A stretch of DNA of 64,000 nucleotides from NCBI RefSeq assembly GCF_030013595.1, contig NZ_CP122768.1. One strand, given 5' to 3'. The position numbers and the translations under genes were made by a program. Positions 2,054-42,986 of the stretch are shown piece after piece; the stretch's first letter is position 1, and each line of letters starts with the position of its first letter. This DNA is from Escherichia coli. GTDB taxonomy: Bacteria; Pseudomonadota; Gammaproteobacteria; Enterobacterales; Enterobacteriaceae. The notes beneath the pieces are model-generated. The model did no database searches, was not told where the DNA came from, and was given only the letters and a program-made list of their open reading frames with translations.

Positions 2054-2074
2054 AATTACCTCTCGCTTTTCTGC

Positions 2075-2101
2075 AATAAAAAAGGCGCCATTTCTGGCGC
2101 C
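2075..2101 (-). terminator. hairpin plus T-run between J and lom
   Basis: ggcgcc-N6-ggcgcc stem followed by TTTTTTATT on minus strand. Confidence 0.5.
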
Positions 2102-2120
2102 CGTATATGGGTTATAAAAT

Positions 2121-5600: not shown

Positions 5601-5671
5601 TCGTCACGCTCCATAAACGACAAAACCGCCCGCAGGCGGTTTCACATAAAACATTTTTCATCAGCGACCAA

Positions 5672-6972: not shown

Positions 6973-6976
6973 GGGA

Positions 6977-7675: not shown

Positions 7676-8004
7676 CAGTTCACCACCTGTTCAAACTCTG
7701 CGCTGAACTCAACACGCAGCATACTGACCCGCGACGACCATTTTGCGCAGGTCACCTTTATCTGCCGCCACTCATAAGGCGGCGTCCACAGAAAGGCTTT
7801 CCAGCCCCCGTGCTCTTCCAGAAACGACTCCAGTACCGTGGCCTCCTCACGGGGGACAGAAAGCGTCACGCTGTACGTTTTCAGGTTGGCATTCAGCCCG
7901 GCAGGCGCTCGCTGGGAATAGCCATCACCAAAGCGCACCTTTCTTACAGAAGGGGCCGAAGCCACATCCATACCGGGTTTCACTTTCCAGCGGAAGGTTT
8001 TCAT
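7675..8004 (-). CDS. M: tail tip protein M
   Basis: 109 aa, λ gene order and size. Confidence 0.9.
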   Translation of the reverse strand: MKTFRWKVKPGMDVASAPSVRKVRFGDGYSQRAPAGLNANLKTYSVTLSVPREEATVLESFLEEHGGWKAFLWTPPYEWRQIKVTCAKWSSRVSMLRVEFSAEFEQVVN

Positions 8005-10562
8005 CGTCCACCTCCGGAGAACAGTCCACCATCACGCATCTGTGTCTGAATTTCATCACGGGCACCCTTGCGGGCCATGTCATACACCGCCTTCAGAGCA
8101 GCCGGACCTATCTGCCCGTTCGTGCCGTCGTTGTTAATCACCACATGGTTATTCTGCTCAAACGTCCCGGACGCCTGCGACCGGCTGTCAGCCAGACTGC
8201 CCGGTGTACCGACATAACCACCGGTGGCATAGCCGCGCATCAGCCGGTAGAGATTCCCCACGCCAATCCGGCTGGTTGCCTCCTTTGTGAAGACAAATTC
8301 ACCACGGTGAACAATCCCCGCTGGCTCATATTTGCCGCCGGTTCCCGTAAATCCTCCGGTTGCAAAATGGAATTTCGCCGCAGCGGCCTGAATGGCTGTA
8401 CCGCCTGACGCGGATGCGCCGCCACCAACAGCCCCGCCAATAGCGCTGCCGATACTCCCGACAATCCCCACCATTGCCTGCTTAAGCAGAATTTCTGTCA
8501 TCATGGACAGCACGGAACGGGTGAAGCTGCGCCAGTTCTGCTCACTGCCGGTCAGCATCGCCGCCATATTCTGTGCAATACCATCAAAGGTCTGCGTGGC
8601 TGCACTTTTTACCTGCGACATACTGTCCGTGGCGCTCTCTTCCCACTCACTCCAGCCGGACTTCAGGCCTGCCATCCAGCTCCCGCGAAGCTGGTCTTCA
8701 GCCGCCCAGGTCTTTTTCTGCTCTGACATGACGTTATTCAGCGCCAGCGGATTATCGCCATACTGTTCCTTCAGGCGCTGTTCCGTGGCTTCCCGTTCTG
8801 CCTGCCGGTCAGTCAGCCCCCGGCTTTTCGCATCAATGGCGGCCCGTTTTGCCCGTTGCTGCTGTGCGAATTTATCCGCCTGCTGCGCCAGCGCGTTCAG
8901 GCGCTCCTGATACGTAACCTTGTCGCCAAGTGCAGCCAGCTGGAGTTTGTACTCCAGCGTCTCATCTTTATGCGCCAGCAGGGATTTCTCCTGTGCAGAC
9001 AGCTGGCGACGTTGCGCCGCCTCCTCCAGTACCGCGAACTGACTCTCCGCCTTCCACAAATCCCGGCGCTGCTGGCTGATTTTCTCATTTGCTCCGGCAT
9101 GCTTCTCCAGCGTCCGGAGTTCAGCCTGAAGCGTCAGCAGGGCAGCATGAGCACTGTCTTCCTGACGATCGCCCGCAGACACCTTCACGCCGGACTGTTT
9201 CGGCTTTTTCAGCGTCGCTTCATAGTCCTTTTTCGCCGCCGCCATCAGCGTGTTGTAATCTGCCTGCAGAATTTTCCCGTCCTTCAGTGCCTTGTTCAGT
9301 TCTTCCTGACGGGCGGTATATTTCTCCAGCGGCGTCTGCAGCCGTTCGTAAGCTTTCTGCGCCTCTTCGGTATATTTCAGCCGTGACGCTTCAGTATCGC
9401 TCTGCTGCTGCGCATTTTTGTCCTGTTGACTCTGCTGTTCAGCCTTCTTTCTCGCGGCTTCAAGCGCAAGACGGGCCTTTTCACGATCATCCCAGTAACG
9501 CGCCCGCGCTTCATCGTTAACAAAATAATCATCCTTGCGCAGACTCCAGATGTCGTCCGCTTTCTTAAACGCAGCCTCTGCCTTAATCAGCATCTCCTGA
9601 GCGGTATCAGGACGACCAATATCCAGCACCGCATCCCACATGGATTTGAATGCCCGCGCTGTCCTGTCTGCCCAGGTCTCCAGCGTACCCATGTTCTCTT
9701 TCAGGCGGCGGGTCTGGTCATCAAACCCTTTCGTCGCGGCCTCGTTCGCCGCCTGCAATGCCCCGGCTTCATCGCCGGAACGCTGCAACTGAGCAACATA
9801 CGCAATCTGCTCCGCCGTCACGTTATGGAACTGGCGTGCCATCGCTGTCAGCCCTGACGTCGGGTCTGTGGTCAGCTTCCCGAAGGCTTCAGCGACCTTG
9901 TCCACCTCCACGCCGGATGCAGAGGAGAAACGCGCCACACTCTGGCTGATGGATGCAATCTGAGCCTCACCGCTTACTCCCGCCTTAACCAGTGCGCTGA
10001 GTGACTCGCTGGTCTGGTTAAACGTCAGCCCTGCCGCCTGCCCGGCTCTGGACAGGACCAGCATACGATCTGCCGTCAGACCCGACTGATTGCCGGAAAG
10101 GACCAGCGTTTTGTTGAAATCGGACAGGGTTGAGTTGCCCTGATACCAGGCATACGCCAGCGCACCGGTCGCCACCGCCAGCGAGGTGGCCCCGACCATC
10201 GGCAGGGTGATCGCACCGGCAAGCCCCCTGAACATGGGGATCATCCCGCCGAAGGAGTCCTTCACCTGACCACCCTGTTGCAGCAGGATCAGCCACGGAC
10301 TTTGCCCGCCTGCAAGCTGCGTGGCCACGTCGGTGAACTGCGCAGGCAGCATACGCATGGCAGCTTTATACTGCCCGACGGAAATCCCCGCTTTCTGTGC
10401 AGCCAGCGCCTGTCGGCTCAGCGACTGTTCAACGACTGCCGCTGTTTTTTTCGCATCACTTTCCGTACCGGAAAAATGACGCCTGACTCTGGCCATCTGC
10501 TCGTCAAATCTGGCCGCATCCAGACTTAAATCAACGACCAGATCGCCTACCGGTTCAGCCAT
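8001..10562 (-). CDS. H: tail tape measure protein H
   Basis: 853 aa, coiled-coil rich, λ position and length. Confidence 0.9.
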   Translation of the reverse strand: MAEPVGDLVVDLSLDAARFDEQMARVRRHFSGTESDAKKTAAVVEQSLSRQALAAQKAGISVGQYKAAMRMLPAQFTDVATQLAGGQSPWLILLQQGGQVKDSFGGMIPMFRGLAGAITLPMVGATSLAVATGALAYAWYQGNSTLSDFNKTLVLSGNQSGLTADRMLVLSRAGQAAGLTFNQTSESLSALVKAGVSGEAQIASISQSVARFSSASGVEVDKVAEAFGKLTTDPTSGLTAMARQFHNVTAEQIAYVAQLQRSGDEAGALQAANEAATKGFDDQTRRLKENMGTLETWADRTARAFKSMWDAVLDIGRPDTAQEMLIKAEAAFKKADDIWSLRKDDYFVNDEARARYWDDREKARLALEAARKKAEQQSQQDKNAQQQSDTEASRLKYTEEAQKAYERLQTPLEKYTARQEELNKALKDGKILQADYNTLMAAAKKDYEATLKKPKQSGVKVSAGDRQEDSAHAALLTLQAELRTLEKHAGANEKISQQRRDLWKAESQFAVLEEAAQRRQLSAQEKSLLAHKDETLEYKLQLAALGDKVTYQERLNALAQQADKFAQQQRAKRAAIDAKSRGLTDRQAEREATEQRLKEQYGDNPLALNNVMSEQKKTWAAEDQLRGSWMAGLKSGWSEWEESATDSMSQVKSAATQTFDGIAQNMAAMLTGSEQNWRSFTRSVLSMMTEILLKQAMVGIVGSIGSAIGGAVGGGASASGGTAIQAAAAKFHFATGGFTGTGGKYEPAGIVHRGEFVFTKEATSRIGVGNLYRLMRGYATGGYVGTPGSLADSRSQASGTFEQNNHVVINNDGTNGQIGPAALKAVYDMARKGARDEIQTQMRDGGLFSGGGR

Positions 10563-10989
10563 ACCGGACTCCTCCTGCGATCCCTTCTGATACTGTCATC
10601 AGCATTACGTCATCCTCCGTCATGTCCGCCACATCCGGGGAAACGGGGATAACTTCATTCACGTCCGGGCCAAAGCGGACGCCTCCGGCAAGCCCTGCCG
10701 CTTTCTGCATCAGCACATCATCTTCAGGCTCTTCGTCAGCCTCACGCCGGTTCAGCAGACTGAAATCCAGCGGATGCATATCCGGATCGCTGAAAAACAG
10801 GCTGAGCACGGTGTACGTCAGCCCGGAAAAGTGCATATCCAGCAGAACATCATGAAAATAATGGGTACTGTAAAAGCGGTGCCAGTCGGCATACTCCGTG
10901 GATGACATCCCGGCAAGCATGGCACGCCAGTCGGGTCGCCCCATCTCGCGCGCCAGTTTCAGGGCAAAGCTCAGCTCACCGTCGAACAC
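10555..10989 (-). CDS. T: tail assembly chaperone T reading frame (made as gpG-T fusion by -1 frameshift)
   Basis: 144-codon frame overlapping 3' end of G; slippery heptamer at the overlap. Confidence 0.8.
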   Translation of the reverse strand: MFDGELSFALKLAREMGRPDWRAMLAGMSSTEYADWHRFYSTHYFHDVLLDMHFSGLTYTVLSLFFSDPDMHPLDFSLLNRREADEEPEDDVLMQKAAGLAGGVRFGPDVNEVIPVSPDVADMTEDDVMLMTVSEGIAGGVRYG

Positions 10990-11393
10990 TTTCCCGCAGA
11001 AACAGGCTCTGCAGGCCCGGCGTCCTCTGCCTGTTCAGGGGCATCATTCACCACAAACTCATACATACCGGACAGCCGGTACACCACGTTTTCAGCATGA
11101 GAAATTGCCTCTGTGGGCCAGGTGGTAAGCACTTCCTGCTCAATCTGTTTAACGGCTTCATTCATGGAAGGCTGCTTTGTCTTCTGCGGATGGTTATGCC
11201 ACAGGGACATAGCCACCACAAAAGCACCGGTTCTGATGGCGTCTTCCACAGTAAACTTCCGGTTGCTGTCTGACTCCGCCTGTTCTGCCTGCCGTTTCAT
11301 CAGGGCGAGATGCTCAATACGCTGCAGGGCTGACAGTTCAGAAAGCGTGACGGTCACGCCGTTATGTTCAAATGATTCGGTTTTCAGGAACAT
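10971..11393 (-). CDS. G: tail assembly chaperone G
   Basis: 140 aa, λ order and size. Confidence 0.85.
   Translation of the reverse strand: MFLKTESFEHNGVTVTLSELSALQRIEHLALMKRQAEQAESDSNRKFTVEDAIRTGAFVVAMSLWHNHPQKTKQPSMNEAVKQIEQEVLTTWPTEAISHAENVVYRLSGMYEFVVNDAPEQAEDAGPAEPVSAGKCSTVS
10989..10995 (-). other. G-T programmed -1 frameshift slippery site (GGGAAAG)
   Basis: Heptamer GGGAAAG on minus strand at the G/T overlap. Confidence 0.6.
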
Positions 11394-11408
11394 CGCTGAC
11401 TCTCCGGA

Positions 11409-12149
11409 TTAACTGTCGGTGACAGTGATTTCTGCAACCGCAGCAAGTTCACCATTACCGGATACAACCGGAATGTTGACCTTACCTGCAGCAACGCCTT
11501 TCACGGTGATGGTCATACCACTGACCGACACGGTGGCTTTTGTTTTATCCGCAGACACCGCACGAAAGCTCTTGTCGGTTACGCCCTCCGGCTGGAAGGC
11601 CACGGTCAGCGTGGTGCTCTGCCCTTTCACCACCGAGGTGCTGGCAGGCGTCACGGTCATGCCGGTTGCCGCTGTTACCGTGCTGCGATCTTCTGCCATC
11701 GACGGACGTCCCACATTGGTGACTTTCACCGTGCGGGTGATCACTTCCTTCGCCGTCACCGCCTTACCGATACTGCTGACCCAGCCACGGAACACATCGA
11801 CCGTGCCGTTCGGGAAGCGGATTTTATAGGCACGGGTATCGCCTTCATTAAACCACGCCAGCAGCGCCTGCTGCCCCTGCTCTCCGGGCATCCACGCCAG
11901 CGTGAAGCTGGTATCTCCGGCAGATTTCTGCCCCTGCCCGGTCGCAGTCCAGTCTGCATCTTCATCATCGAGATAGCTGTCGTCATAGGACTCAGCGGTC
12001 AGTTCGCCGGGCGTCAGGTCTTTAACTTTTGCCAGACGCGACCAGTCAACGTCTGAAAGCGGATTCGCATAAGGGTCACCGCTCCCCTTATAAACCCACA
12101 GGGTGGTCCCGGCACCTTTCACCGGCATTACAGGATTTGGTACAGGCAT
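11409..12149 (-). CDS. V: major tail tube protein V (C-terminal Ig-like domain)
   Basis: Start set at MPVPNP (track start minus 30 nt); 246 aa as λ gpV. Confidence 0.9.
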
Positions 12150-12156
12150 AGCGTCC

Positions 12157-12552
12157 TCACATTTCATAGGTAATGACATAAGTCAGATCGGCTGAACTCC
12201 ACAGGCCCGCATCATCGTCGCGCCGGTAGTCATAGCCGCTGGCCACCATACTGGTGATCAAATCTGACAGTGCCGGGATATCGCTCATCACCGGATAAAT
12301 CCGGGACTCCATCCACGCATCCAGCTCTGAATCCGGCACCTGAGCAGGCAGGAAAACTTCGATATGCAGCTCCGCCTGCCAGGTATCGCTGTCCAGCTCT
12401 TCGCCCGTGTATTCAGCGCCGGTGAGATAAACGGCAACTGCCGGAAAATCCGCCTCATCAAAAACAGCGGGGCGACCATCAAAAAACGTCGCCCCGGTGT
12501 CATGCTTCTCCAGTGCATCCAGTACGGCTGCACGGAGTTCAGTATGTTTCAT
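12157..12552 (-). CDS. U: tail terminator protein U
   Basis: 131 aa, λ order and size. Confidence 0.9.
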
Positions 12553-13127
12553 CGCTTTATTACCATCCTCAGTTGATGCTGCAGCGCATAGCCCAGCTCT
12601 TTCGGAAGACGTTCACGCCGTATCCGCTCAATATTTTGTTTAAACGCCGTGGTCAGCGGCACCGCCATCGGGATTTTCACCACATCAATGGGGTAACGGT
12701 TTTTCCCGGCCACACGCTGCATGACATGCCACCGGCCATTTTTCAGTTGCTGAATAAACGCGCCGGGAATACGACGGTTTCCCACCACAAGCACGCTGCC
12801 GCCACCTTTCAGGGCTGAACGCTGCCCCTTTTTACGACGCCTGCGTCGGGACAGGACAATCCGCGCGTTACCCAGCTTTATTACGGGCAAATCCCCCCGG
12901 TTAACCTTGATTCTGGCCTGCGGATTTTTGACCGTGGCCCTTTTCAGCCTGGCCCTTTCCTTTACCAGTTTCCGGCGTACCTTTGTCTCACGGGCAACCT
13001 GTGACGCCGACTGCGATATCGCGGATGAAGCAACGCGGTTAATGGCCATTGCGGCGGCACCGGGCACCGCCGTTCTGCTGATACGGCTGAGGTTTTCAAC
13101 GGCCTGCTCAAGACCTTTTATGGCCAT
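12549..13127 (-). CDS. Z: tail completion protein Z
   Basis: 192 aa, λ order and size. Confidence 0.9.
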   Translation of the reverse strand: MAIKGLEQAVENLSRISRTAVPGAAAMAINRVASSAISQSASQVARETKVRRKLVKERARLKRATVKNPQARIKVNRGDLPVIKLGNARIVLSRRRRRKKGQRSALKGGGSVLVVGNRRIPGAFIQQLKNGRWHVMQRVAGKNRYPIDVVKIPMAVPLTTAFKQNIERIRRERLPKELGYALQHQLRMVIKR

Positions 13128-13138
13128 ACATCCCCCTT

Positions 13139-13492
13139 TCAGCGGCGACGGTTAACGGCAGGCGGTACGCCCCGCCCAAGCCAGAGATGACAGCTTCCGC
13201 CATCATCCGGCGAAATCCGGTCCACCCAGAAGTTTTCCTCGCCGATGGTCAGTGTGTCTCCACGCCGCAGCTGCCGCACATCATCAGTCCGGACAAACAG
13301 GGACGGGCTGGAGCCTTCAACGCGCACCCCCTGTCCGGCATAGCTGATATTTTCAGGGTCATCAAAAACACCACGTATCACAGCACCGGACAGCTCACCG
13401 GATGTCATGGTGGCTGACGTTCCCATGTACCCGCGTATCGTTTCATCGGCGCGGGCAATGGCAGCATCGAACAGGTTATCGGAATCAGCCAC
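13139..13492 (-). CDS. FII: head-tail connector protein FII
   Basis: 117 aa, λ order and size. Confidence 0.9.
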   Translation of the reverse strand: MADSDNLFDAAIARADETIRGYMGTSATMTSGELSGAVIRGVFDDPENISYAGQGVRVEGSSPSLFVRTDDVRQLRRGDTLTIGEENFWVDRISPDDGGSCHLWLGRGVPPAVNRRR

Positions 13493-13503
13493 AGCGCCTC
13501 CCG

Positions 13504-13899
13504 TTATTGCATTCTGGCCAGGCCATGTTCTGTCATTTCGGCTGCCACACCGGCAGAGACACGAAACGCCGTTCCCGGCAGCACAAATGCCACAGGCTCA
13601 TCCCGCGTGGCGTGAAGTGCATCAGTATGCAGCGTCACCAGTGCCACGACCGTGACCAGAGCAGCCGTATCAATCACGGTATCCGGCTGCGCTGATACCA
13701 CCTCATTTTCATGCCCGGTCAGCGCATTTTCCGGGCTGACAGATGTGTCCTGACCGGCAGCGTCATCCGTGTCATCAAGCTCCTCTTCCAGCTCTGCCAC
13801 ACGGAGTGCCAGTTCTTCTTTCGTCCCCGTCAGGCTGACATCACGGTTCAGTTGCTCACCCAGCACCTGAAGACGGGCAATCAGTTCATCTTTCGTCAT
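13504..13899 (-). CDS. FI: DNA packaging protein FI
   Basis: Start at MTKDELIARL (track start minus 39 nt); 132 aa. Confidence 0.85.
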   Translation of the reverse strand: MTKDELIARLQVLGEQLNRDVSLTGTKEELALRVAELEEELDDTDDAAGQDTSVSPENALTGHENEVVSAQPDTVIDTAALVTVVALVTLHTDALHATRDEPVAFVLPGTAFRVSAGVAAEMTEHGLARMQ

Positions 13900-13940
13900 G
13901 GACTCCTCCACAGAGAGAAAATGGCCCCGAAGGGCCATGA

Positions 13941-14966
13941 TTACGCCAGTTGTACGGACACGAACGCATCAGGGTCAGCCAGCAGCATCAGCGGTGCTGA
14001 CTGAATCATGGTGAACTCACGCGCCGGATCGCCGGTGGTCACCCAGTTTTTCGGGTAGCGGGCAGAGGCGTTAATACCTTCGCGCTGTGCGTCCGCATCC
14101 TGAATGCAGCCATAGGTGCGCAGACCGCGTGCCTGAGTGTTCCCCAGCACCATCGTGTTGTCCGGAAGGAAGTTCTTTTTGACGTCGTTTTCCACATACT
14201 GTCCGGAATACACGACGATCGCCGTATCGCCATACATCCCCTTATAGGACACCGCTTCGCCCAGGTCTTTTACCGCTGTCTCCAGCTCGGAATTAGAGCC
14301 GCGACGGGTATCCAGCTTCTCCCTGACGGCTTTGAAGGAACGGAACAGCGCCCAGCCTTTCGGATCAAACACGATGATATTCACCACACCGCTGGCGTTC
14401 AGCGCGTAGGCTTCGATATCGTCGGTCGGGTCATACGTGGACTTGTCACGCTTGCTCCACTCCGTACCGCCGGACTGCGTGATGTTGTTCGCCACACTGC
14501 GGCCCATATCCACTTCAACCGGATCGAAGGCTTCACCGGTCATGGTGTATTTGCCCTTAAGCACGGCAGAAACTGCCTGCATCTCTTCGACCTGAGCAAT
14601 GGCCAGCTCTTCGTCTCGCATGTTCTGCAGGATGATGCGACGGCGGCGGTAAGCCGGGTCCGCCAGATTCTGTGGATCTTCATCCGGCAGGCGACGCAGG
14701 GTCATCTGCGGATTCACCTCATGCTTGGGTTTGACATATCCCGGTGTAAATTCAGAGGTGGAGCCGCCACGGGAGCGGATAACCTCACCGGAAACAATCG
14801 GCGAAACGTACAGCGCCATGTTTACCAGTCCCGGAATTTGTGAGAGATAGACTTTCTCCGTGGTGAAGGGATAGCTCTCACGGAAAAAGAGACGCAGAAA
14901 CAGCGGATCAAACTTAAATTTCTTCTCATTTGCCGCCAGCAGCTGGGCGGTTGTGTACATCGACAT
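13941..14966 (-). CDS. E: major capsid protein E
   Basis: Start at MSMYTTAQ (track minus 27 nt); 341 aa λ gpE-like. Confidence 0.9.
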   Translation of the reverse strand: MSMYTTAQLLAANEKKFKFDPLFLRLFFRESYPFTTEKVYLSQIPGLVNMALYVSPIVSGEVIRSRGGSTSEFTPGYVKPKHEVNPQMTLRRLPDEDPQNLADPAYRRRRIILQNMRDEELAIAQVEEMQAVSAVLKGKYTMTGEAFDPVEVDMGRSVANNITQSGGTEWSKRDKSTYDPTDDIEAYALNASGVVNIIVFDPKGWALFRSFKAVREKLDTRRGSNSELETAVKDLGEAVSYKGMYGDTAIVVYSGQYVENDVKKNFLPDNTMVLGNTQARGLRTYGCIQDADAQREGINASARYPKNWVTTGDPAREFTMIQSAPLMLLADPDAFVSVQLA

Positions 14967-15021
14967 AAAAAAATCCCGTAAAAAAAGCCGCACAGGCGGC
15001 CTTTAGTGATGAAGGGTAAGG

Positions 15022-15354
15022 TTAAACGATGCTGATTGCCGTTCCGGCAAACGCGGTCCGTTTTTTCGTCTCGTCGCTGGCAGCCTCCGGCCAGAGCACA
15101 TCCTCATAACGGAACGTGCCGGACTTGTAGTACGTCAGCGTGGTGCTGGTCTGGTCAGCATCAACCGCCAGAATGCCAACGGCAGCACCGTCGGTGGTGC
15201 CATCCCACGCAACCAGCTTACGGGTGGAGGTATCCAGCATCAGCGGGGTCATTGCAGGCGCTTTCGCACTCAATCCGCCGGGCGCGGTTGCCGTATGTGC
15301 CGGGTCACTGTTGCCCAGCGGCTGGTAATGGGTAAAGGTTTCTTTGCTCGTCAT
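15022..15354 (-). CDS. D: capsid decoration protein D
   Basis: Start at MTSKETF; 110 aa. Confidence 0.9.
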
Positions 15355-15363
15355 AAACATCCC

Positions 15364-16663
15364 TTACACTGGTGTGTTCAGCAAATCGTTAACGGCATCA
15401 GATGCCGGGTTACCTGCAGCCAGCGGTGCCGGTGCCCCCTGCATCAGACGATCCAGCGCAGTGTCACTGCGCGCCTGTGCACTCTGTGGTGCAGCTGCCA
15501 GAATGCGGCGGGCCGTTTCCACGGTCATACCGGGGGTTTCGGCCAGCACGCGTGCCTGTTCTTCACGTCCGTGAGCCTCCTCACAGTTGAGGATCCCCAT
15601 AATGCGACTGTTTTCTGCCGCAACCGCTGCGGTGATCTGCGCGTTTACGTCCGGCTGCGCCGCGCTGGCGTTCTCGCCCTCCGTCGCTTGCACCACGCCA
15701 GTAACGTCAGCCTGCGAAGCAGTGGCTGAAACAGTTGTTGATTGAGTCTCTTTGGTCATTCGCCCTCCTGAGAGACGGGATTTACGTGCATCCAGTGCAT
15801 CACGCATGACGGTGATCGCATCGGTACTGTTAACAAGTTCATCAGCCAGTCCGGCATCAATGGCCTCCTGACCGCTGTACACTGCAGCCTCGGTATCCAG
15901 CACAGCCTGCACAGACAGGCCGGTATATGCCGACACCTTCTGTGCAAACATCCGGCGGGTTGCATCCATCCGGGACTGCAGTGTTTCCCGGACATCATCC
16001 GGTAGATGGCTGTAGGGGTTGCCATCCACCTTATGGCTGCCGCTGTAAATCAGCGTGATTTCCACGCCCTGTTTCTCCAGCGCAGCGCCGTAATTACTGT
16101 GAGCCATCATGACGCCGATGGAGCCTGTCCGGGCGGTCTGCGTGACCAGACGCCGGGAGGCGGCACTGGCAAGCAGCTGACCTGCGCTGCAGTTCATGTC
16201 ATTGGCCAGCGCCCATACCGGCTTTATGTCACGCACACGGGCGATGATGTCAGCGCAGTCAAATGCCCCCGCCACCATTCCGCCTGGCGTATCCATATCG
16301 AGCAGAATGCCGTCCACCATCGGGTCACTGGCAGCCTGTTGCAGACGGGCGATAATGCCGTTGTAACCGGTCATTCCCGAATACGGCTGCAGCGCCCGCG
16401 TCCGACTGACCAGCGTACCGGACACCGGCAGCACGGCGATGCCGTTCATGACCTGATAACTGCGGGCCTGTCGTGGTCCGTCATCATCACCGGATAACGC
16501 CAGCGCCGCGGGTGCCTCTCCGGCAGTCAGGCTGTCGCCGGATACTGCATCCGTCAGGCGGCTGATCCCAAGCTGGCCTGCAAGCGCACAAAAGAAAACC
16601 CGCGCATAGGCGGGTTCAAGCATCAGCGGCTCATTAAAAGCCATGCTGGCAATATGCGGGAGA

Positions 16664-16683
<20 letters not shown>
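15364..16683 (-). CDS. C: capsid assembly protease C (scaffold Nu3 nested in-frame in 3' part)
   Basis: S49/ClpP-like sequence; start at VTAELRNL codon (GTG) giving 20-nt overlap with B as in λ. Confidence 0.85.
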
Positions 16684-20364
<3,681 letters not shown>

Positions 20365-21059: not shown

Positions 21060-21110
21060 AATTTTCATAAATAGCGAAAACCCGCGAGGTCGCCGCCCCG
21101 TAACCTGTTG
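21060..21110. other. cos: cos site (cosN 12-nt cohesive end about 21087-21098, revcomp of GGGCGGCGACCT) with flanking cosB/cosQ
   Basis: Sequence cgcgaggtcgccgccc matches the λ left-end cohesive sequence in reverse orientation, just upstream of Nu1. Confidence 0.8.
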
Positions 21111-24079: not shown

Positions 24080-24155
24080 TGGTGCTGGTTAACGGACTTG
24101 AACCGCTACCCATTCGCTTACAAGGCGACCGCTCTACCATTGGAGCTAAACCAGC
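24080..24155 (-). tRNA. tRNA-like gene, anticodon UGU (Thr) by hand folding
   Basis: 76 nt cloverleaf: acceptor GCTGGTT/AACCAGC, D-arm GCTC…GAGC, anticodon loop CTTGTAA, T-loop TTCAAGT, CCA end. Confidence 0.55.
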
Positions 24156-24160
24156 ATATT

Positions 24161-24235
24161 TGGCGGGACAGCGTGGACTCGAACCACGATAAGAAGGTTA
24201 ACAGCCTTCCGTAATGACCTTTATACGACTGACCC
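24161..24235 (-). tRNA. second tRNA-like element, anticodon GUU (Asn?) with imperfect acceptor/D arm; possibly a pseudo-tRNA
   Basis: T-arm CGTGG-TTCGAGT-CCACG, anticodon stem GAAGG/CCTTC loop CTGTTAA, CCA end; one acceptor mismatch. Confidence 0.4.
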
Positions 24236-33500: not shown

Positions 33501-33558
33501 CTTGTGTTGGTCGCCAGAAAATGAAATTAGGCAGCAAACCACTTATTTGAGGTGAGAT

Positions 33559-33645
33559 ATGGAAGAAGAATTTGAAGAGTTCGAAGAGCATCCTCAGGAT
33601 GTGATGGAACAATACCAGGACTATCCGTATGACTACGACTATTGA
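33559..33645 (+). CDS. small highly acidic peptide (28 aa, MEEEFEEFEEHPQDVMEQYQDYPYDYDY)
   Basis: Short ORF with RBS-like GAGG upstream; overlaps ral start; coding status uncertain. Confidence 0.3.
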   Translation: MEEEFEEFEEHPQDVMEQYQDYPYDYDY

Positions 33646-33829
33646 TACAAATCAATGGTGTGGACAATTCAAACGATGCAATGGATGCAAGCTGCAATCG
33701 GAATGCATGGTTAAGCCTGAAGAAATGTTTCCTGTAATGGAAGATGGGAAATATGTCGATAAATGGGCAATACGAACGACGGCAATGATTGCCAGAGAAC
33801 TTGGTAAACAGAACAACAAAGCTGCCTGA
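33629..33829 (+). CDS. ral: Ral restriction alleviation protein
   Basis: 66 aa, λ Ral-like sequence. Confidence 0.85.
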   Translation: MTTTIDTNQWCGQFKRCNGCKLQSECMVKPEEMFPVMEDGKYVDKWAIRTTAMIARELGKQNNKAA

Positions 33830-33965
33830 TAGTGGCCTTTATTTTTGGCATAAATAACAGAATAAACACTGCACTGTGTATTCATTCCAACGAGTGAATA
33901 CACGGAGCAATGTCGCTCGTAACTAAACAGGAGCCGACTTGTTCTGATTATTGGAAATCTTCTTT

Positions 33966-33991
33966 GCCCTCCAGTGTGAGGGCGATTTTTT
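33966..33991 (+). terminator. rho-independent terminator (tL-type) upstream of ea10
   Basis: gccctc-cagtgt-gagggc hairpin followed by T-run. Confidence 0.55.
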
Positions 33992-34011
33992 ATCTATGAG
34001 GATATGAATAG

Positions 34012-34380
34012 ATGTCAAACATCAAAAAATACATCATTGATTACGACTGGAAAGCATCAATAGAAATTGAAATCGACCATGACTTAATGACAGAGGAAAA
34101 ACTTCACAAGATTAATAATTTCTGGTCAGACTCTGAATACCGACTCAATAAACACGGCTCTGTATTAAATGCTGTATTAATCATGCTGGCGCAACATGCT
34201 CTGCTTATAGCAATTTCAAGCGACTTAAATGCATATGGTGTTGTGTGTGAGTTCGACTGGAATGATGGAAATGGTCAGGAAGGATGGCCTACAATGGATG
34301 GTAGCGAAGGAATAAGAATTACCGATATCGATACATCAGGAATATTTGATTCAGATGATATGACTATCAAAGCCGCCTGA
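34012..34380 (+). CDS. ea10: Ea10-like early protein
   Basis: 122 aa ORF in λ ea10 position between ral and cIII. Confidence 0.65.
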   Translation: MSNIKKYIIDYDWKASIEIEIDHDLMTEEKLHKINNFWSDSEYRLNKHGSVLNAVLIMLAQHALLIAISSDLNAYGVVCEFDWNDGNGQEGWPTMDGSEGIRITDIDTSGIFDSDDMTIKAA

Positions 34381-34452
34381 GCGCGGCGTTACCGCATACC
34401 AATAACGCTTCACTCGAGGCGTTTTTCGTTATGTATAAATAAGGAGCACACC

Positions 34453-34617
34453 ATGCAATATGCCATTGCAGGGTGGCCTGTTGCTGGCTGCCCTTCCGAA
34501 TCTTTACTTGAACGAATCACCCGTAAATTACGTGACGGATGGAAACGCCTTATCGACATACTTAATCAGCCAGGAGTCCCAAAAAATGGATCAAACACTT
34601 ATGGCTATCCAGACTAA
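34453..34617 (+). CDS. cIII: CIII (FtsH inhibitor)
   Basis: 54 aa MQYAIAGWPVAGCPSESLLERITRKLRDGWKRL… as λ CIII. Confidence 0.9.
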   Translation: MQYAIAGWPVAGCPSESLLERITRKLRDGWKRLIDILNQPGVPKNGSNTYGYPD

Positions 34618-34729
34618 ATTCACTATCGCCACTTTTATTGGCGATGAAAAGATGTTTCGTGAAGCCGTCGACGCTTATAAAAAATGGATATTAATGCTGA
34701 AACTGAGATCAAGCAAAAGCATTCACTAA
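34586..34729 (+). CDS. kil: Kil (host cell division inhibitor)
   Basis: 47 aa [34 protein letters not shown]… overlapping cIII 3' end. Confidence 0.8.
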
Positions 34730-34804
34730 CCCCCTTTCCTGTTTTCCTAATCAGCCTGGCATTTCGCGGGCGCTATTTTCACAGCCATTTTCAGGAGTTC
34801 AGCC

Positions 34805-35101
34805 ATGAACGCTTATTACATTCAGGATCGTCTTGAGGCTCAGAGCTGGGCGCGTCACTACCAGCAGATCGCCCGTGAAGAGAAAGAGGCAGAACTGGCA
34901 GACGACATGGAAAAAGGCCTGCCCCAGCACCTGTTTGAATCGCTATGCATCGATCATTTGCAACGCCACGGGGCCAGCAAAAAAGCCATTACCCGTGCGT
35001 TTGATGACGATGTTGAGTTTCAGGAGCGCATGGCAGAACACATCCGGTACATGGTTGAAACCATTGCTCACCACCAAGTTGATATTGATTCAGAGGTATA
35101 A
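34805..35101 (+). CDS. gam: Gam (RecBCD inhibitor), 98-aa short form only
   Basis: λ Gam core sequence from [21 protein letters not shown]; upstream extension is in another frame. Confidence 0.85.
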
Positions 35102-35106
35102 AACGG

Positions 35107-35892
35107 ATGAGTACAGCACTCGCAACGCTGGCAGGGAAGCTGGCTGAACGTGTCGGCATGGATTCTGTCGACCCACAGGAACTGATCACCACTCTTCGCC
35201 AGACGGCATTTAAAGGTGATGCCAGCGATGCGCAGTTCATCGCATTGTTGATCGTCGCCAACCAGTACGGCCTTAATCCGTGGACGAAAGAAATTTACGC
35301 CTTCCCTGATAAGCAGAACGGCATCGTTCCGGTGGTGGGCGTTGATGGCTGGTCCCGCATCATCAATGAAAACCAGCAGTTTGATGGCATGGACTTTGAG
35401 CAGGACAATGAATCCTGTACATGCCGGATTTACCGCAAGGACCGTAATCATCCGATCTGCGTTACCGAATGGATGGATGAATGCCGCCGCGAACCATTCA
35501 AAACTCGCGAAGGCAGAGAAATCACGGGGCCGTGGCAGTCGCATCCCAAACGGATGTTACGGCATAAAGCCATGATTCAGTGTGCCCGTCTGGCCTTCGG
35601 ATTTGCTGGTATCTATGACAAGGATGAAGCCGAGCGCATTGTCGAAAATACTGCATACACTGCAGAACGCCAGCCGGAACGCGACATCACTCCGGTTAAC
35701 GATGAAACCATGCAGGAGATTAACACTCTGCTGATCGCCCTGGATAAAACATGGGATGACGACTTATTGCCGCTCTGTTCCCAGATATTTCGCCGCGACA
35801 TTCGCGCATCGTCAGAACTGACACAGGCCGAAGCAGTGAAAGCTCTTGGATTCCTGAAACAGAAAGCCTCTGAACAGAAGGTGGCTGCATGA
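35107..35892 (+). CDS. bet: Bet (Redβ single-strand annealing protein)
   Basis: 261 aa λ Bet-like. Confidence 0.9.
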
Positions 35893-36569
35893 CACCGGAC
35901 ATTATCCTGCAGCGTACCGGGATCGACGTGAGAGCTGTCGAACAGGGGGATGATGCGTGGCACAAATTACGGCTCGGCGTCATCACCGCTTCAGAAGTTC
36001 ACAATGTGATAGCAAAACCCCGCTCCGGAAAGAAATGGCCTGACATGAAAATGTCCTACTTCCACACCCTGCTTGCCGAGGTTTGCACCGGTGTGGCTCC
36101 GGAAGTTAACGCTAAGGCGCTGGCCTGGGGAAAACAGTACGAGAACGACGCCAGAGCCCTCTTTGAGTTCACTTCCGGCGTGAATGTTACTGAATCCCCG
36201 ATCATCTATCGCGACGAAAGTATGCGCACCGCCTGCTCTCCCGATGGTTTATGCAGTGACGGCAACGGCCTTGAACTGAAATGCCCGTTTACCTCCCGGG
36301 ATTTCATGAAATTCCGGCTCGGTGGTTTCGAGGCCATAAAGTCGGCTTACATGGCCCAGGTGCAGTACAGCATGTGGGTGACGCGAAAAGATGCCTGGTA
36401 CTTTGCCAACTATGACCCACGAATGAAGCGTGAAGGCCTGCATTATGTCGTGGTTGAGCGGGATGAAAATTACATGGCGAGTTTTGACGAGATGGTGCCG
36501 GAGTTCATCGAAAAAATGGACGAGGCACTGGCTGAAATTGGTTTTGTATTTGGGGAGCAATGGCGATGA
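35889..36569 (+). CDS. exo: Exo (λ 5'-3' exonuclease)
   Basis: 226 aa λ Exo-like. Confidence 0.9.
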
Positions 36570-36748
36570 AGCATCCTCACGATAATATCCGGGTAGGTGC
36601 GATCACTTTCGTCTACTCCGTTACAAAGCGAGGCTGGGTATTTCCCGGCCTTTCTGTTACCCGAAATCCCCTGAAAGCACAGCGGCTGGCTGAGGAGATA
36701 AATAATAAACGGGGAGCTGTATGCACAAAGCATCTCCTGTTGAGTTAA
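36560..36748 (+). CDS. small early protein (orf60a-like)
   Basis: 62-aa ORF in λ position after exo. Confidence 0.55.
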
Positions 36749-36912
36749 GAACGAGCATTGAGATGGCACATAGCCTCGCTCAAATTGGAGTCAGGTTTGT
36801 GCCAATACCAGTAGAAACAGACGAAGAATTTCATACGTTAGCCGCATCCCTTTCACAAAAGCTGGAAATGATGGTGGCGAAAGCAGAAGCAGATGAGAGA
36901 GACCAGGTATGA
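36721..36912 (+). CDS. small early protein (orf63-like)
   Basis: 63-aa ORF, λ-like order. Confidence 0.55.
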   Translation: MHKASPVELRTSIEMAHSLAQIGVRFVPIPVETDEEFHTLAASLSQKLEMMVAKAEADERDQV

Positions 36913-36988
36913 CAACCACTGAATGCATTTTTCTGGCAGCGGGCTTCATATTCTGTGTGCTTATGCTTGCCGACATGGGACTTGTTCA

Positions 36989-37204
36989 ATGACACATCAG
37001 CAAGAAAACGCCCTTCGCAGTATTGCCCGTCAGGCTAATTCTGAAATCAAAAAAGCCAGACAGCAGTTTCCGGATAAAAACGTCGATGACATTTGCCGTA
37101 GCGTACTGAAGAAGCACCGCGAAACGGTAACGCTGATGGGATTCACACCGACTCATTTAAGCCTGGCGATCGGCATGTTAAACGGCGTCTTTAAGGAACG
37201 GTGA
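36989..37204 (+). CDS. small early protein (orf61-like)
   Basis: Start at MTHQQENALRSIARQ; λ-like order. Confidence 0.5.
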   Translation: MTHQQENALRSIARQANSEIKKARQQFPDKNVDDICRSVLKKHRETVTLMGFTPTHLSLAIGMLNGVFKER

Positions 37205-37302
37205 GCATGAAAAACAAAATCATCATGGAGCTACAGGCTCCTTTTTTATTATTCGCATTCACCCTCAAGCGTATTAACCAACAATTCAGGGATTAATGAA
37301 AG

Positions 37303-37524
37303 ATGGCAGACATCATTGATTCAGCATCAGAAATTGAAGAATTACAGCGCAACACAGCAATAAAAATGCGCCGCCTGAACCACCAGGCTATATCTGCCAC
37401 TCATTGTTGTGAGTGTGGCGATCCGATAGATGAACGAAGACGCTTGGCCGTTCAGGGTTGTCGGACTTGTGCAAGTTGCCAGGAGGATCTGGAACTTATC
37501 AGTAAACAGAGAGGTTCGAAGTGA
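37303..37524 (+). CDS. TraR/DksA-family zinc-finger protein (λ orf73-like)
   Basis: 73 aa with CxxC…CxxC C4 zinc finger typical of TraR-like RNAP-binding proteins. Confidence 0.7.
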   Translation: MADIIDSASEIEELQRNTAIKMRRLNHQAISATHCCECGDPIDERRRLAVQGCRTCASCQEDLELISKQRGSK

Positions 37525-38069
37525 GCGAAATTAACTCTCAGGCACTGCGTGAAGCGGCAGAGCAGGCAATGCATGACGACTGGGGATTTGACGCAGACCT
37601 TTTCCATGAATTGGTAACACCATCGATTGTGCTGGAACTGCTGGATGAACGGGAAAGAAACCAGCAATACATCAAACGCCGCGACCAGGAGAACGAGGAT
37701 ATTGCGCTAACAGTAGGGAAACTGCGTGTTGAGCTTGAAACAGCAAAATCAAAACTCAACGAGCAGCGTGAGTATTACGAAGGTGTTATCTCGGATGGGA
37801 GTAAGCGTATTGCTAAACTGGAAAGCAACGAAGTCCGTGAAGACGGAAACCAGTTTCTTGTTGTTCGCCATCCTGGGAAGACTCCTGTTATCAAGCACTG
37901 CACTGGTGACCTGGAAGAGTTTCTGCGGCAGTTAATCGAACAAGACCCGTTAGTAACTATCGACATCATTACGCATCGCTATTACGGGGTTGGAGGTCAA
38001 TGGGTTCAGGATGCAGGTGAGTATCTGCATATGATGTCTGACGCTGGCATTCGCATCAAAGGAGAGTGA
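37521..38069 (+). CDS. ea22: Ea22-like protein
   Basis: 182 aa, λ position and size. Confidence 0.75.
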   Translation: MSEINSQALREAAEQAMHDDWGFDADLFHELVTPSIVLELLDERERNQQYIKRRDQENEDIALTVGKLRVELETAKSKLNEQREYYEGVISDGSKRIAKLESNEVREDGNQFLVVRHPGKTPVIKHCTGDLEEFLRQLIEQDPLVTIDIITHRYYGVGGQWVQDAGEYLHMMSDAGIRIKGE

Positions 38070-38260
38070 GATCGGTTTTGTAAAAGATAACGCTTGTGAA
38101 AATGCTGAATTTCGCGTCGTCTTCACAGCGATGCCAGAGTCTGTAGTGTCAGATGATGACCGTACTCAAACATCGGGTTGAGTATTATCTTACTGTTTCT
38201 TTACATAAACATTGCTGATACCGTTTAGCTGAAACGACATACATTGCAAGGAGTTTATAA

Positions 38261-38542
38261 ATGAGTATCAATGAGTTAGAGTCTGAGCAAAAAGATTGGG
38301 CGTTATCAATGTTGTGCAGATCCGGTGTCTTGTCTCCATGCAGACATCACGAAGGTGTTTATGTAGATGAAGGTATAGATATAGAGTCGGCATACAAATA
38401 TTCCATGAAGGTTTATAAGTCTAATGAAGACAAATCCCCATTCTGCAATGTGCGAGAAATGACTGATACCGTGCAAAATTATTATCACGAGTACGGTGGA
38501 AACGATACTTGCCCTCTCTGTACAAAACATATAGATGATTAA
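38261..38542 (+). CDS. ea8.5: Ea8.5-like protein
   Basis: 93 aa, Cys/His-rich, λ position and size. Confidence 0.75.
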   Translation: MSINELESEQKDWALSMLCRSGVLSPCRHHEGVYVDEGIDIESAYKYSMKVYKSNEDKSPFCNVREMTDTVQNYYHEYGGNDTCPLCTKHIDD

Positions 38543-38630
38543 ACCCAATATTACATAACAATCCTCGCACTCGCGGGGATTTATTTTATCTGAACTCGCT
38601 ACGGCGGGTTTTGTTTTATGGAGATGATAA

Positions 38631-38798
38631 ATGCACTTCCGAGTCACAGGAGAATGGAATGGAGAGCCATTCAACAGAGTTATCGAAGCGGAGAACATCA
38701 ACGACTGCTACGACCACTGGATGATATGGGCGCAGATAGCACATGCAGACATAACCAATATTCGAATTGAAGAACTGAAAGAACACCAAGCCGCCTGA
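38631..38798 (+). CDS. small protein (orf55-like)
   Basis: 55-aa ORF just upstream of xis. Confidence 0.5.
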   Translation: MHFRVTGEWNGEPFNRVIEAENINDCYDHWMIWAQIAHADITNIRIEELKEHQAA

Positions 38799-38811
38799 TG
38801 GCGGTTTTTTC
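38791..38811 (+). terminator. hairpin + T-run between orf55 and xis
   Basis: ccgcc-tgat-ggcgg followed by TTTTTT. Confidence 0.5.
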
Positions 38812-38837
38812 TTGCGTGTAATTGCGGAGACTTTGCG

Positions 38838-39056
38838 ATGTACTTGACACTTCAGGAGTGGAACGCTCGCCAGCGACGCCCAAGAAGCCTTGAAACAGTT
38901 CGTCGATGGGTGCGCGAATGCAGGATATTCCCTCCTCCGGTTAAGGATGGAAGAGAATATCTGTTCCACGAATCAGCGGTAAAGGTTGACTTAAATCGAC
39001 CAGTAACAGGTAGCCTTTTGAAGAGGATCAGAAATGGGAAGAAGGCGAAGTCATGA
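38838..39056 (+). CDS. xis: excisionase Xis
   Basis: 72 aa λ Xis-like (MYLTLQEWNARQRRPRSLETVRRW…). Confidence 0.9.
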   Translation: MYLTLQEWNARQRRPRSLETVRRWVRECRIFPPPVKDGREYLFHESAVKVDLNRPVTGSLLKRIRNGKKAKS

Positions 39057-40104
39057 GCGCCGGGATTTACCCCCTAACCTTTATATAAGAAACAATGGAT
39101 ATTACTGCTACAGGGACCCAAGGACGGGTAAAGAGTTTGGATTAGGCAGAGACAGGCGAATCGCAATCACTGAAGCCATACAGGCCAACATTGAGTTATT
39201 TTCAGGACACAAACACAAGCCTCTGACAGCGAGAATCAACAGTGATAATTCCGTTACGTTACATTCATGGCTTGATCGCTACGAAAAAATCCTGGCCAGC
39301 AGAGGAATCAAGCAGAAGACACTCATAAATTACATGAGCAAAATTAAAGCAATAAGGAGGGGTCTGCCTGATGCTCCACTTGAAGACATCACCACAAAAG
39401 AAATTGCGGCAATGCTCAATGGATACATAGACGAGGGCAAGGCGGCGTCAGCCAAGTTAATCAGATCAACACTGAGCGATGCATTCCGAGAGGCAATAGC
39501 TGAAGGCCATATAACAACAAACCCTGTCGCTGCCACTCGCGCAGCAAAATCAGAGGTAAGGAGATCAAGACTTACGGCTGACGAATACCTGAAAATTTAT
39601 CAAGCAGCAGAATCATCACCATGTTGGCTCAGACTTGCAATGGAACTGGCTGTTGTTACCGGGCAACGAGTTGGTGATTTATGCGAAATGAAGTGGTCTG
39701 ATATCGTAGATGGATATCTTTATGTCGAGCAAAGCAAAACAGGCGTAAAAATTGCCATCCCAACAACATTGCATGTTGATGCTCTCGGGATATCAATGAA
39801 GGAAACACTTGATAAATGCAAAGAGATTCTTGGCGGAGAAACCATAATTGCATCTACTCGTCGTGAACCGCTTTCATCCGGCACAGTATCAAGGTATTTT
39901 ATGCGCGCACGAAAAGCATCAGGTCTTTCCTTCGAAGGGGATCCGCCTACCTTTCACGAGTTGCGCAGTTTGTCTGCAAGACTCTATGAGAAGCAGATAA
40001 GCGATAAGTTTGCTCAACATCTTCTCGGGCATAAGTCGGACACCATGGCATCACAGTATCGTGATGACAGAGGCAGGGAGTGGGACAAAATTGAAATCAA
40101 ATAA
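39034..40104 (+). CDS. int: tyrosine integrase Int
   Basis: 356 aa λ Int-like with C-terminal R…HxxR…Y catalytic region. Confidence 0.9.
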   Translation: MGRRRSHERRDLPPNLYIRNNGYYCYRDPRTGKEFGLGRDRRIAITEAIQANIELFSGHKHKPLTARINSDNSVTLHSWLDRYEKILASRGIKQKTLINYMSKIKAIRRGLPDAPLEDITTKEIAAMLNGYIDEGKAASAKLIRSTLSDAFREAIAEGHITTNPVAATRAAKSEVRRSRLTADEYLKIYQAAESSPCWLRLAMELAVVTGQRVGDLCEMKWSDIVDGYLYVEQSKTGVKIAIPTTLHVDALGISMKETLDKCKEILGGETIIASTRREPLSSGTVSRYFMRARKASGLSFEGDPPTFHELRSLSARLYEKQISDKFAQHLLGHKSDTMASQYRDDRGREWDKIEIK

Positions 40105-40177
40105 TGATTTTATTTTGACTGATAGTGACCTGTTCGTTGCAACAAATTGATAAGCAATGCTTTTTTATAATGCCAAC

Positions 40178-40192
40178 TTAGTATAAAAAAGC
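40178..40192. other. attL: attL core (15-bp GCTTTTTTATACTAA, reverse orientation) at prophage/chromosome junction
   Basis: ttagtataaaaaagc flanked by λ P'-arm sequence on the int side and attB-like CCTGC on the ybhC side. Confidence 0.8.
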
Positions 40193-40238
40193 AGGCTTCA
40201 ACGGATTCATTTTTCTATTTCATAGCCCGGAGCAACCT

Positions 40239-41522
40239 GTGAACACATTTTCAGTTTCCCGTCTGGCGCTGGCATTGGCTTTTGGCGTGACGCTGACCGC
40301 CTGTAGCTCAACACCGCCCGATCAACGTCCTTCTGATCAAACCGCGCCTGGTACCTCTTCTCGCCCGATTCTGTCGGCAAAAGAAGCGCAGAATTTCGAT
40401 GCTCAACACTATTTTGCATCCCTGACACCAGGTGCGGCAGCGTGGAATCCTTCCCCGATTACCCTGCCTGCGCAACCTGACTTTGTTGTCGGCCCGGCGG
40501 GTACTCAAGGTGTAACGCATACCACGATTCAGGCGGCGGTAGATGCGGCAATTATCAAGCGCACCAACAAGCGCCAGTATATTGCCGTGATGCCTGGTGA
40601 GTATCAGGGAACGGTGTATGTCCCTGCCGCTCCGGGTGGAATTACTCTGTACGGTACAGGTGAAAAACCGATTGATGTGAAGATTGGGCTTTCCCTTGAT
40701 GGTGGCATGAGCCCTGCCGACTGGCGTCACGACGTCAACCCGCGCGGCAAATATATGCCAGGTAAACCGGCGTGGTATATGTACGATAGCTGCCAGAGCA
40801 AACGCAGCGACAGTATCGGCGTTCTCTGCTCTGCGGTCTTCTGGTCACAAAACAATGGCCTGCAACTGCAAAACCTGACCATCGAAAACACGCTGGGCGA
40901 TAGCGTAGATGCGGGTAACCATCCGGCGGTGGCACTGCGTACTGATGGCGACAAAGTGCAGATCAATAACGTCAACATTCTCGGTCGTCAGAACACCTTC
41001 TTTGTCACCAACAGCGGTGTGCAGAACCGTCTGGAAACCAACCGTCAGCCGCGTACTCTGGTGACCAACAGTTACATTGAAGGGGATGTGGATATCGTTT
41101 CTGGTCGCGGCGCAGTGGTGTTCGATAACACCGAATTCCGCGTGGTGAACTCACGTACTCAGCAAGAAGCGTATGTGTTTGCACCGGCAACACTGTCTAA
41201 CATCTATTACGGTTTCCTCGCCGTAAACAGCCGTTTCAATGCTTCCGGTGATGGCGTGGCGCAACTGGGCCGCTCGCTGGATGTTGATGCCAATACCAAC
41301 GGTCAGGTGGTGATCCGTGATAGCGCCATCAACGAAGGTTTTAACACAGCCAAACCGTGGGCTGATGCGGTGATCTCTAATCGTCCGTTTGCGGGTAACA
41401 CCGGCAGCGTTGATGATAACGACGAAGTACAGCGTAATCTGAATGACACTAACTACAACCGCATGTGGGAATACAATAACCGCGGCGTGGGTAGCAAAGT
41501 GGTTGCAGAGGCGAAGAAGTAA
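40239..41522 (+). CDS. ybhC: YbhC (pectinesterase-fold outer-membrane lipoprotein / acyl-CoA thioesterase)
   Basis: 427 aa, lipoprotein signal (LTAC), known neighbour of attλ in E. coli. Confidence 0.85.
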   Translation: MNTFSVSRLALALAFGVTLTACSSTPPDQRPSDQTAPGTSSRPILSAKEAQNFDAQHYFASLTPGAAAWNPSPITLPAQPDFVVGPAGTQGVTHTTIQAAVDAAIIKRTNKRQYIAVMPGEYQGTVYVPAAPGGITLYGTGEKPIDVKIGLSLDGGMSPADWRHDVNPRGKYMPGKPAWYMYDSCQSKRSDSIGVLCSAVFWSQNNGLQLQNLTIENTLGDSVDAGNHPAVALRTDGDKVQINNVNILGRQNTFFVTNSGVQNRLETNRQPRTLVTNSYIEGDVDIVSGRGAVVFDNTEFRVVNSRTQQEAYVFAPATLSNIYYGFLAVNSRFNASGDGVAQLGRSLDVDANTNGQVVIRDSAINEGFNTAKPWADAVISNRPFAGNTGSVDDNDEVQRNLNDTNYNRMWEYNNRGVGSKVVAEAKK

Positions 41523-41552
41523 GAGCTATTAACTATTTGCCGGATGCGGCGT

Positions 41553-42309
<757 letters not shown>

Positions 42310-42413
42310 ATCAGCATACTTGTCCTTAGCCTTCTGCAGTGACAGCTGGTAGTACAGCGTGCTTCTGGCCAGCCCTGCAGCCTTTAACAGGTCAGACTGG
42401 CAGTGTCCGCACC

Positions 42414-42944
42414 TCAGGCTCCGGATGACTTTCGTTTTTTCTCCAGCTCCTGGCGCTTTTTTTCCAGGAGATGCTCCTGCATGGCTTTCAGATATGCATT
42501 TTCTGCGCGAAGATAACGCAGCTCATTCTTCATCTCTTCCGGCGTCATGTTTGCCTCGTTTTCATGGGTATCATCAGAACGGGTCATGCTTTTCTCCTTC
42601 CTGCGCCTGATAAAGGCCTCATTACCAGATTTGCGGTAGCCTTTTATCCAGTTTTTAACCGTGTTGTGGCTGGGAATGTTAAACCGGGCAGCTACCCGGG
42701 GTAGAGACTCAGAATGCCCGAGAGCATAAAGAACCACGCAAAGTTTATCTTCAGGAGAATAGCTACGCTTGTGTCTGCAATCCAGTGCACGAGGACCGTG
42801 AAGAAGAAAAAGATTAATCCAGTGTGAGAGGCTGGTGTGAGAAAGTTGAAAGAGTTTTGCCGTAGAAATGATGCCTGCATGACCAGCCAGGTAATGATTT
42901 ACAGCGGCAAGTTTTACTTCAAATGAATGTTTCATAAACTGCAC
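42414..42944 (-). CDS. IS3-family transposase OrfA (HTH + leucine zipper); A-run slippery site near its 3' end for OrfAB fusion
   Basis: 176 aa; GAAAAAAAG-type slippery run at ~42420-42450. Confidence 0.8.
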   Translation of the reverse strand: MQFMKHSFEVKLAAVNHYLAGHAGIISTAKLFQLSHTSLSHWINLFLLHGPRALDCRHKRSYSPEDKLCVVLYALGHSESLPRVAARFNIPSHNTVKNWIKGYRKSGNEAFIRRRKEKSMTRSDDTHENEANMTPEEMKNELRYLRAENAYLKAMQEHLLEKKRQELEKKRKSSGA

Positions 42945-42986
42945 CTTCAGATGTCAGATTATGTCCAACATTTGGGGTGCAGTTCA

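Follow-up and report, generated by a model that had tools for sequence, protein, structure and literature searches.

We found that the interval from 40105 to 40240 of the 64,000-nucleotide stretch of Escherichia coli DNA analyzed here (contig NZ_CP122768.1; hereafter, the window) is almost certainly an attL site of the form B-O-C′-P′, that is, the gal-side junction of a lambda-type prophage inserted at E. coli attB between ybhC and ybhB. The interval is exactly the int-ybhC intergenic region, with int ending at 40104 and the GTG start of ybhC lying at 40239. When it was reverse-complemented and placed in a three-way alignment, it read as K-12 attB-left, the core, and the lambda P′ arm, with 0 differences within the interval. 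One prophage boundary is placed to the base, between 40192 and 40193, and the insertion site is the classical lambda attB.

The 15-bp common core of lambda, GCTTTTTTATACTAA, gave a single exact match in the 64-kb window, at 40178 to 40192 on the minus strand, and no second copy was present in the window even at up to 2 mismatches (expected count, 0.06). All elements of the site were read on the minus strand. Within the core lies an exact match to the 7-bp overlap O, TTTATAC (40181 to 40187), whose role in strand exchange is taken from the mechanism of lambda Int (PMC4880445). The core is set between two inverted core-type Int sites that together span 40174 to 40194, namely, the host-derived B site CTGCTTTTT at 40186 to 40194, an exact match that is the same as in K-12 attB, and the phage-derived C′ site at 40174 to 40182 (CAACTTAGT on the plus strand of the window), an exact match that is the same as in lambda attP. 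The P′ arm follows toward int. Its three arm-type Int sites occupy 40101 to 40131 and have the exact lambda sequences AAATCATTAT, CAGTCAAAAT, and AGGTCACTAT, with P′3 at 40101 to 40110, where it overlaps the int stop codon, P′2 at 40112 to 40121, and P′1 at 40122 to 40131. The IHF H′ site, whose core TATCAATTTGTTG matches the lambda P′ arm exactly (40140 to 40152), is located between the arm-type sites and the core. A scan of the int-ybhC interval for promoters and terminators yielded nothing above shuffled expectation.

The core is where homology to the phage, on one side, and to host attB, on the other, comes to an end. On the phage side, a lambda blastn block covering window positions 33534 to 40192 at 98.5% identity stops at lambda position 27724, where the annotated 15-bp crossover region begins; on the host side, K-12 homology starts at 40174 and extends to the gal operon. 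The breakpoints are thus lambda 27724/window 40192 and K-12/window 40174 to 40178. Base-by-base counts gave 1 mismatch per 400 nt against lambda from the core toward int (the first at 39864) and 4 mismatches per 400 nt against K-12 from the core toward ybhC (the first at 40313), and K-12 attB-left and lambda P′ are matched at 100% identity over more than 100 nt on their respective sides. When the lambda P arm was compared with the host side and K-12 B′ with the phage side, identity was at chance level (10/40 and 11/40). The sequence-only reading had recognized the core in this interval, P′-arm sequence on the int side, and attB-like sequence on the ybhC side, and it had called the junction attL at the lambda attachment site beside ybhC. 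Each of these points was borne out: the core match is unique and exact, P′1 to P′3, H′, and C′ match lambda exactly, the ybhC side is exactly K-12 attB-left, and the site is the canonical one on the K-12 map, where a BOP′ junction, or BOC′P′ in full, is attL on the gal side by standard nomenclature (PMC4880445).

The genes next to the junction are those of a lambda-type site. int (39034 to 40104, plus strand) encodes a 356-amino-acid (aa) heterobivalent tyrosine recombinase that is identical to lambda Int at 353 of 356 positions, and the aligned catalytic residues R212, K235, H308, R311, H333, and Y342 are unchanged. The excisionase gene xis (38838 to 39056, plus strand), which overlaps the int start, encodes a 72-aa product identical to lambda Xis at 71 positions, and both genes are transcribed toward the site. 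Beyond the boundary, the host flank (40193 to 41522, plus strand), consisting of the attB-left spacer and ybhC (40239 to 41522), is 97.3% identical to K-12 positions 807346 to 805966. The gene is annotated as ybhC in K-12 and in other lysogens; on the K-12 map it lies on the gal side of attB, with ybhB-bioA on the opposite side, and the order ybhC-ybhJ-...-gal is the same in the window as in K-12.

Farther into the host flank, an IS3-family element of 1,432 bp (41555 to 42986), annotated as IS1397 family in matching genomes, carries open reading frames at 41587 to 42309 and 42414 to 42944, both on the minus strand. The insertion point is the loop of a REP/palindromic unit that lies between ybhC and ybhJ; the flanks are GCCGGATGCGGCGTAA and GTAAACGCCTTATCCGGCC, with GTAA duplicated. 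K-12 lacks the insertion, and of the complete genomes only the three that match best have it at this location. Its position in a REP loop fits the REP targeting by IS1397 discussed in PMC1525189.

At the other end, the prophage runs past the left edge of the window, as had been stated. The side tail fiber gene stf, assigned from its translation and from a tblastn match to lambda orf-401, reads from 1389 on the minus strand to the edge of the window, where it is cut off after 463 N-terminal codons (1 to 1389) with its frame still open at position 1. It had also been stated that tfa and attR are missing here, and indeed the window gave no tblastn match for Tfa, nor for lambda orf314, ea47, ea31, or ea59, and it holds no second core, as described above. 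An analysis of the completeness or cargo of the prophage would need about 6 kb more sequence. Relatives of the prophage were used as proxies for the far end; they were found by exact-protein look-ups with Lom and J among NCBI draft assemblies and are near-identical to the window's left end. They share an identical J protein with the window prophage. Locus L021 is 99.95% identical over window positions 6189 to 1, L025 is 99.985% identical to the left end of the window, and L015 is 100% identical, but only over positions 2188 to 1 (2.2 kb). Taken singly, the relatives are 98.4 to 99.98% identical to the window, and none is fully identical; among complete E. coli genomes, the best megablast match to window positions 1 to 6000 reached 96.3%.

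In the relatives that extend far enough, genes for a 1,116-aa Stf and a 193-aa Tfa are followed by a tRNA-Ser fragment, an AraC-family regulator, IS3-family remnants, a lambda-type P arm, and then ybhB, bioA, and bioB. The gap between tfa and attR is thus occupied by about 3 kb of non-lambda cargo (14600 to 17860 in L015, likewise in L017 to L021, and 45441 to 48702 in L027). A 69-nt fragment of this cargo matches a stretch of an annotated tRNA-Ser gene at 100% identity and is possibly a remnant of the att site of another integrative element. We also observed that the window reads as a mosaic of two lambda-like prophages in a single assembly, GCA_030346525.1: positions 12000 to 4376 are 99.97% identical to a prophage beside an omptin gene (Pfam Omptin; locus L012), and positions 2188 to 1 are 100% identical to the prophage at the lambda attB (L015). 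This pattern suggests that lambdoid prophages resident in one host, or relatives of theirs, have recombined with one another.

An attR next to ybhB is retained in 7 of the 7 relatives that share the window's left end. A search of their loci with the exact core had missed it, and the resulting notion that the relatives lack attR was rejected once a mismatch-tolerant search gave a site matching the core at 14 of 15 positions. This core, ACTTTTTTATACTAA, has A instead of G at its first base and an intact TTTATAC, and in the seven loci the junction reads ...CATATTCA-ACTTTTTTATACTAA-CTTGAGCGAAACGGG. B′ is identical to that of K-12 in six of the seven, L018 differing at the first base of B′. The same pairing is seen in the complete genome of APEC O78, which carries the exact core beside ybhC and int and the 14/15 core ACTTTTTTATACTAA beside ybhB, in direct orientation and with a prophage between them. 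The right-end arrangement of APEC O78 and the relatives is common to at least 161 complete E. coli genomes.

For the prophage in the window, we infer from these near-identical relatives a partner attR, which, as measured on L021, is predicted to lie about 5.8 kb beyond window position 1, giving a core-to-core length of about 45,980 bp and a prophage of about 46 kb. An attR at this site is expected to take the form of a P arm, TTTATAC, and CTTGAGCG. The base that differs is supplied by the phage C site and is not part of the 7-bp overlap, so that it is compatible with Int-mediated integration: with exchange within TTTATAC, attR would inherit its first core base from phage C, and attL would inherit its own from host B. 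By the mechanism described for lambda (PMC4880445), a 14/15 repeat should be fully compatible with integration by Int. The sequence-only reading had named the lack of a matching core at the far end as grounds for refutation. This is too strict, and an intact 7-bp overlap, not an exact 15-mer, is the proper criterion. In this lineage only 14 of the 15 core bases are repeated, the 7-bp overlap included, and attR would escape automated boundary searches set to require an exact direct repeat of 15 bp.

The P arm at the attR of the relatives is closest in type to that of phage 434/ev099 (94% identity to 434 versus 92% to lambda). P1 (ACAGGTCACTAAT), P2 (TAGTGACTG), and the sib/tI hairpin are conserved in it, and the segment from P2 to C, which in lambda is where Xis, Fis, and IHF H2 bind, differs at many positions. 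The phage's own attP probably combines a variant C site, CAACTTTTT (core ACTTTTTTATACTAA), and a 434-like P arm with a lambda-identical P′ arm and Int. attL cannot show the phage's C-site base, because the left half of its core is host-derived. If this reading of attP is true, the phage would have a naturally occurring hybrid att module, one that accompanies the same right-end cargo in at least 161 complete E. coli genomes, and the efficiency of integration and excision or the dependence on Xis and Fis could differ from lambda's.

The part of the prophage inside the window (1 to 40192, 40.2 kb) was delimited by blastn and tblastn maps against lambda and by phage database matches of 96 to 98%. 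It is integrated in the minus orientation, with late genes on the minus strand and the early-left operon on the plus strand. The 12-nt cohesive-end sequence of cosN, GGGCGGCGACCT, has a single exact match at 21087 to 21098 (minus strand), and lambda coordinate 1 aligns to 21098; this location inside the prophage is as expected of an integrated, permuted genome. Full-length tblastn matches were obtained for all lambda head and tail genes, from Nu1 through J, and for O, P, ren, NinB, Q, and the int-to-ral block. The regions that replace those of lambda encode an HTH-plus-S24 repressor, an NYN-domain protein in the rex position, an N-like antiterminator, a Dam methylase, a Rha/KilAC antirepressor, and a lysozyme-type lysis cassette; PADLOC scans of the non-lambda open reading frames gave marginal matches only.

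Several loci within the prophage deserve mention in their own right. Genes for tRNA-Thr(TGT) and tRNA-Asn(GTT), absent from lambda, lie at 24080 to 24235 (minus strand), between the Q antiterminator gene (24510 to 25133) and the lysis cassette. The NYN-domain gene (31931 to 32788, plus strand), also absent from lambda, encodes a 285-aa protein of a function-unassigned family (PF01936, phrog_5783) and lies directly downstream of the CI-like repressor gene, in the place that rexA/rexB occupy in lambda. A public collection has the identical protein in 4,791 indexed blocks, where its neighbors are repressors of several immunity types and varied integrases; by this exact-protein look-up, unrelated lambdoid prophages carry the gene by the thousands. 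It is a candidate for a moron or defense gene expressed in the lysogen. The cIII thermoregulator RNA (Rfam Lambda_thermo, RF01804) was detected at 34440 to 34498 on the plus strand with 88.5 bits, so this regulatory element is kept in a phage of non-lambda immunity. Finally, gam (34684 to 35098, plus strand) carries a 1-nt insertion relative to lambda that breaks the 138-aa frame annotated in lambda. An apparent gam frameshift in tblastn was rejected, since the insertion sits upstream of the internal gam start and leaves the 98-aa GamS frame intact.

The likeness to lambda around int raises the reading that the source of the window was a laboratory strain lysogenic for phage lambda itself. Identity to lambda is 98.5% in the int-xis-P′ module and the exo-bet-gam-cIII region, and Int differs at three residues only. 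The rest of the prophage argues against this reading. The structural genes are 96.5% identical to those of lambda, with J at 83% and Lom at 44%, and the CI-like repressor is only 71% identical to lambda CI by tblastn. No tblastn match was found in the window for lambda N, rexA/B, cro, sieB, S, R, Rz, bor, ninC, ninD, ninG, or ninI, and the two tRNA genes and the NYN gene are foreign to lambda. Many lambda-like phages match the whole length of window positions 1 to 20000 at 96 to 97%, whereas no phage record covers more than 63% of positions 20001 to 40300, and lambda covers 54 to 58% of them. Near-identity over the whole genome, including imm-lambda and S-R-Rz, was thus not what these maps against lambda displayed, and we give the laboratory-lysogen reading virtually no credence, rejecting it on the coverage of the early half and on the blastn and tblastn maps. 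By sequence, the prophage is a mosaic lambdoid that carries the lambda int/xis/P′ module.

A chance occurrence of the core, or a secondary attachment site in place of the canonical attB, might be considered for a motif this short and AT rich. The expected count of 0.06 even at up to 2 mismatches, the exact flanks on both sides, and the K-12-like gene order from ybhC to gal refute this reading, which we regard as wholly improbable. More plausible, though still unlikely, is a genuine attL that belongs to a defective or truncated prophage, its attR deleted or rearranged, so that the junction would be a fossil unable to excise. The window does not reach the far end of the prophage, and many of the prophages found at this site are degraded, among them the remnant of about 24 kb in APEC O78, which has a deletion from A to J, the prophage of strain 377323_2f, with its many frameshifted late genes, and the lambda-B remnant of BL21 (PMC4395058). 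Against this stand the full-length matches in the window for every lambda head and tail gene as well as O, P, Q, int, and xis, the attR kept beside ybhB in all seven relatives, and the presence of both att sites even in the degraded element of APEC O78. We thus favor an attL that belongs to a prophage with a partner attR beside ybhB.

Such an attL would have arisen when a lambda-type integrase recombined the attP of a circular lambdoid genome with E. coli attB between ybhC and ybhB, strand exchange taking place inside TTTATAC. Exchange inside the overlap would leave the ybhC side to the host, with the B site, and the int side to the phage, with C′, H′, and P′1 to P′3 running into the 3′ end of int. 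In the lysogen, attL would be inert. Upon induction, Int and Xis would be made, IHF would bend the P′ arm at H′, and Int would bridge C′-P′1 and B-P′2 to give a synapsis-competent attL complex; this complex could then pair with an attR bent by Xis and IHF about 46 kb away beside ybhB, and excision would restore attP and attB. The bend at H′, the two Int bridges, the pairing with Xis-bent attR, and the 7-bp exchange are established for lambda (PMC4880445), and their extension to this site relies on the identity of the sequences. The prophage is presumed to be still able to excise.

In comparison with known systems, the structure is a textbook lambda attL that had been correctly identified, and its importance beyond correct annotation is slight. 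The core, B, C′, H′, P′1 to P′3, their spacing, and the 3′ end of int agree base for base with those of lambda attL at K-12 attB, and the host flank is that of K-12; what differs is the prophage, a mosaic whose immunity, nin, and lysis regions are not those of lambda and whose J and Lom have diverged. With the attP of phage 434/ev099, the relatives share P1, P2, and the sib/tI hairpin in the P arm, and the P′ arm is the same, whereas the first core base is G in 434 and ev099 and A at the relatives' attR (C site CAACTTTTT). A contiguous int-attL-ybhC junction, scored at a coverage of at least 80% of window positions 38500 to 42000, was present in 1,656 of 5,426 complete E. coli genomes (about 30%). 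Lambda-like occupation of attB has also been reported for the B lineage, where lambda-B of BL21 is a 12.1-kb remnant (PMC4395058). APEC O78 (NC_020163.1) and lambda-B of BL21/REL606 share the insertion site and the int-attL-ybhC junction with the window, and APEC O78 in addition has the right-end cargo and the 14/15 attR of the window's closest relatives. Unlike these heavily deleted elements of about 24 kb and 12.1 kb, respectively, the prophage in the window has 40 kb with a complete late-gene set.
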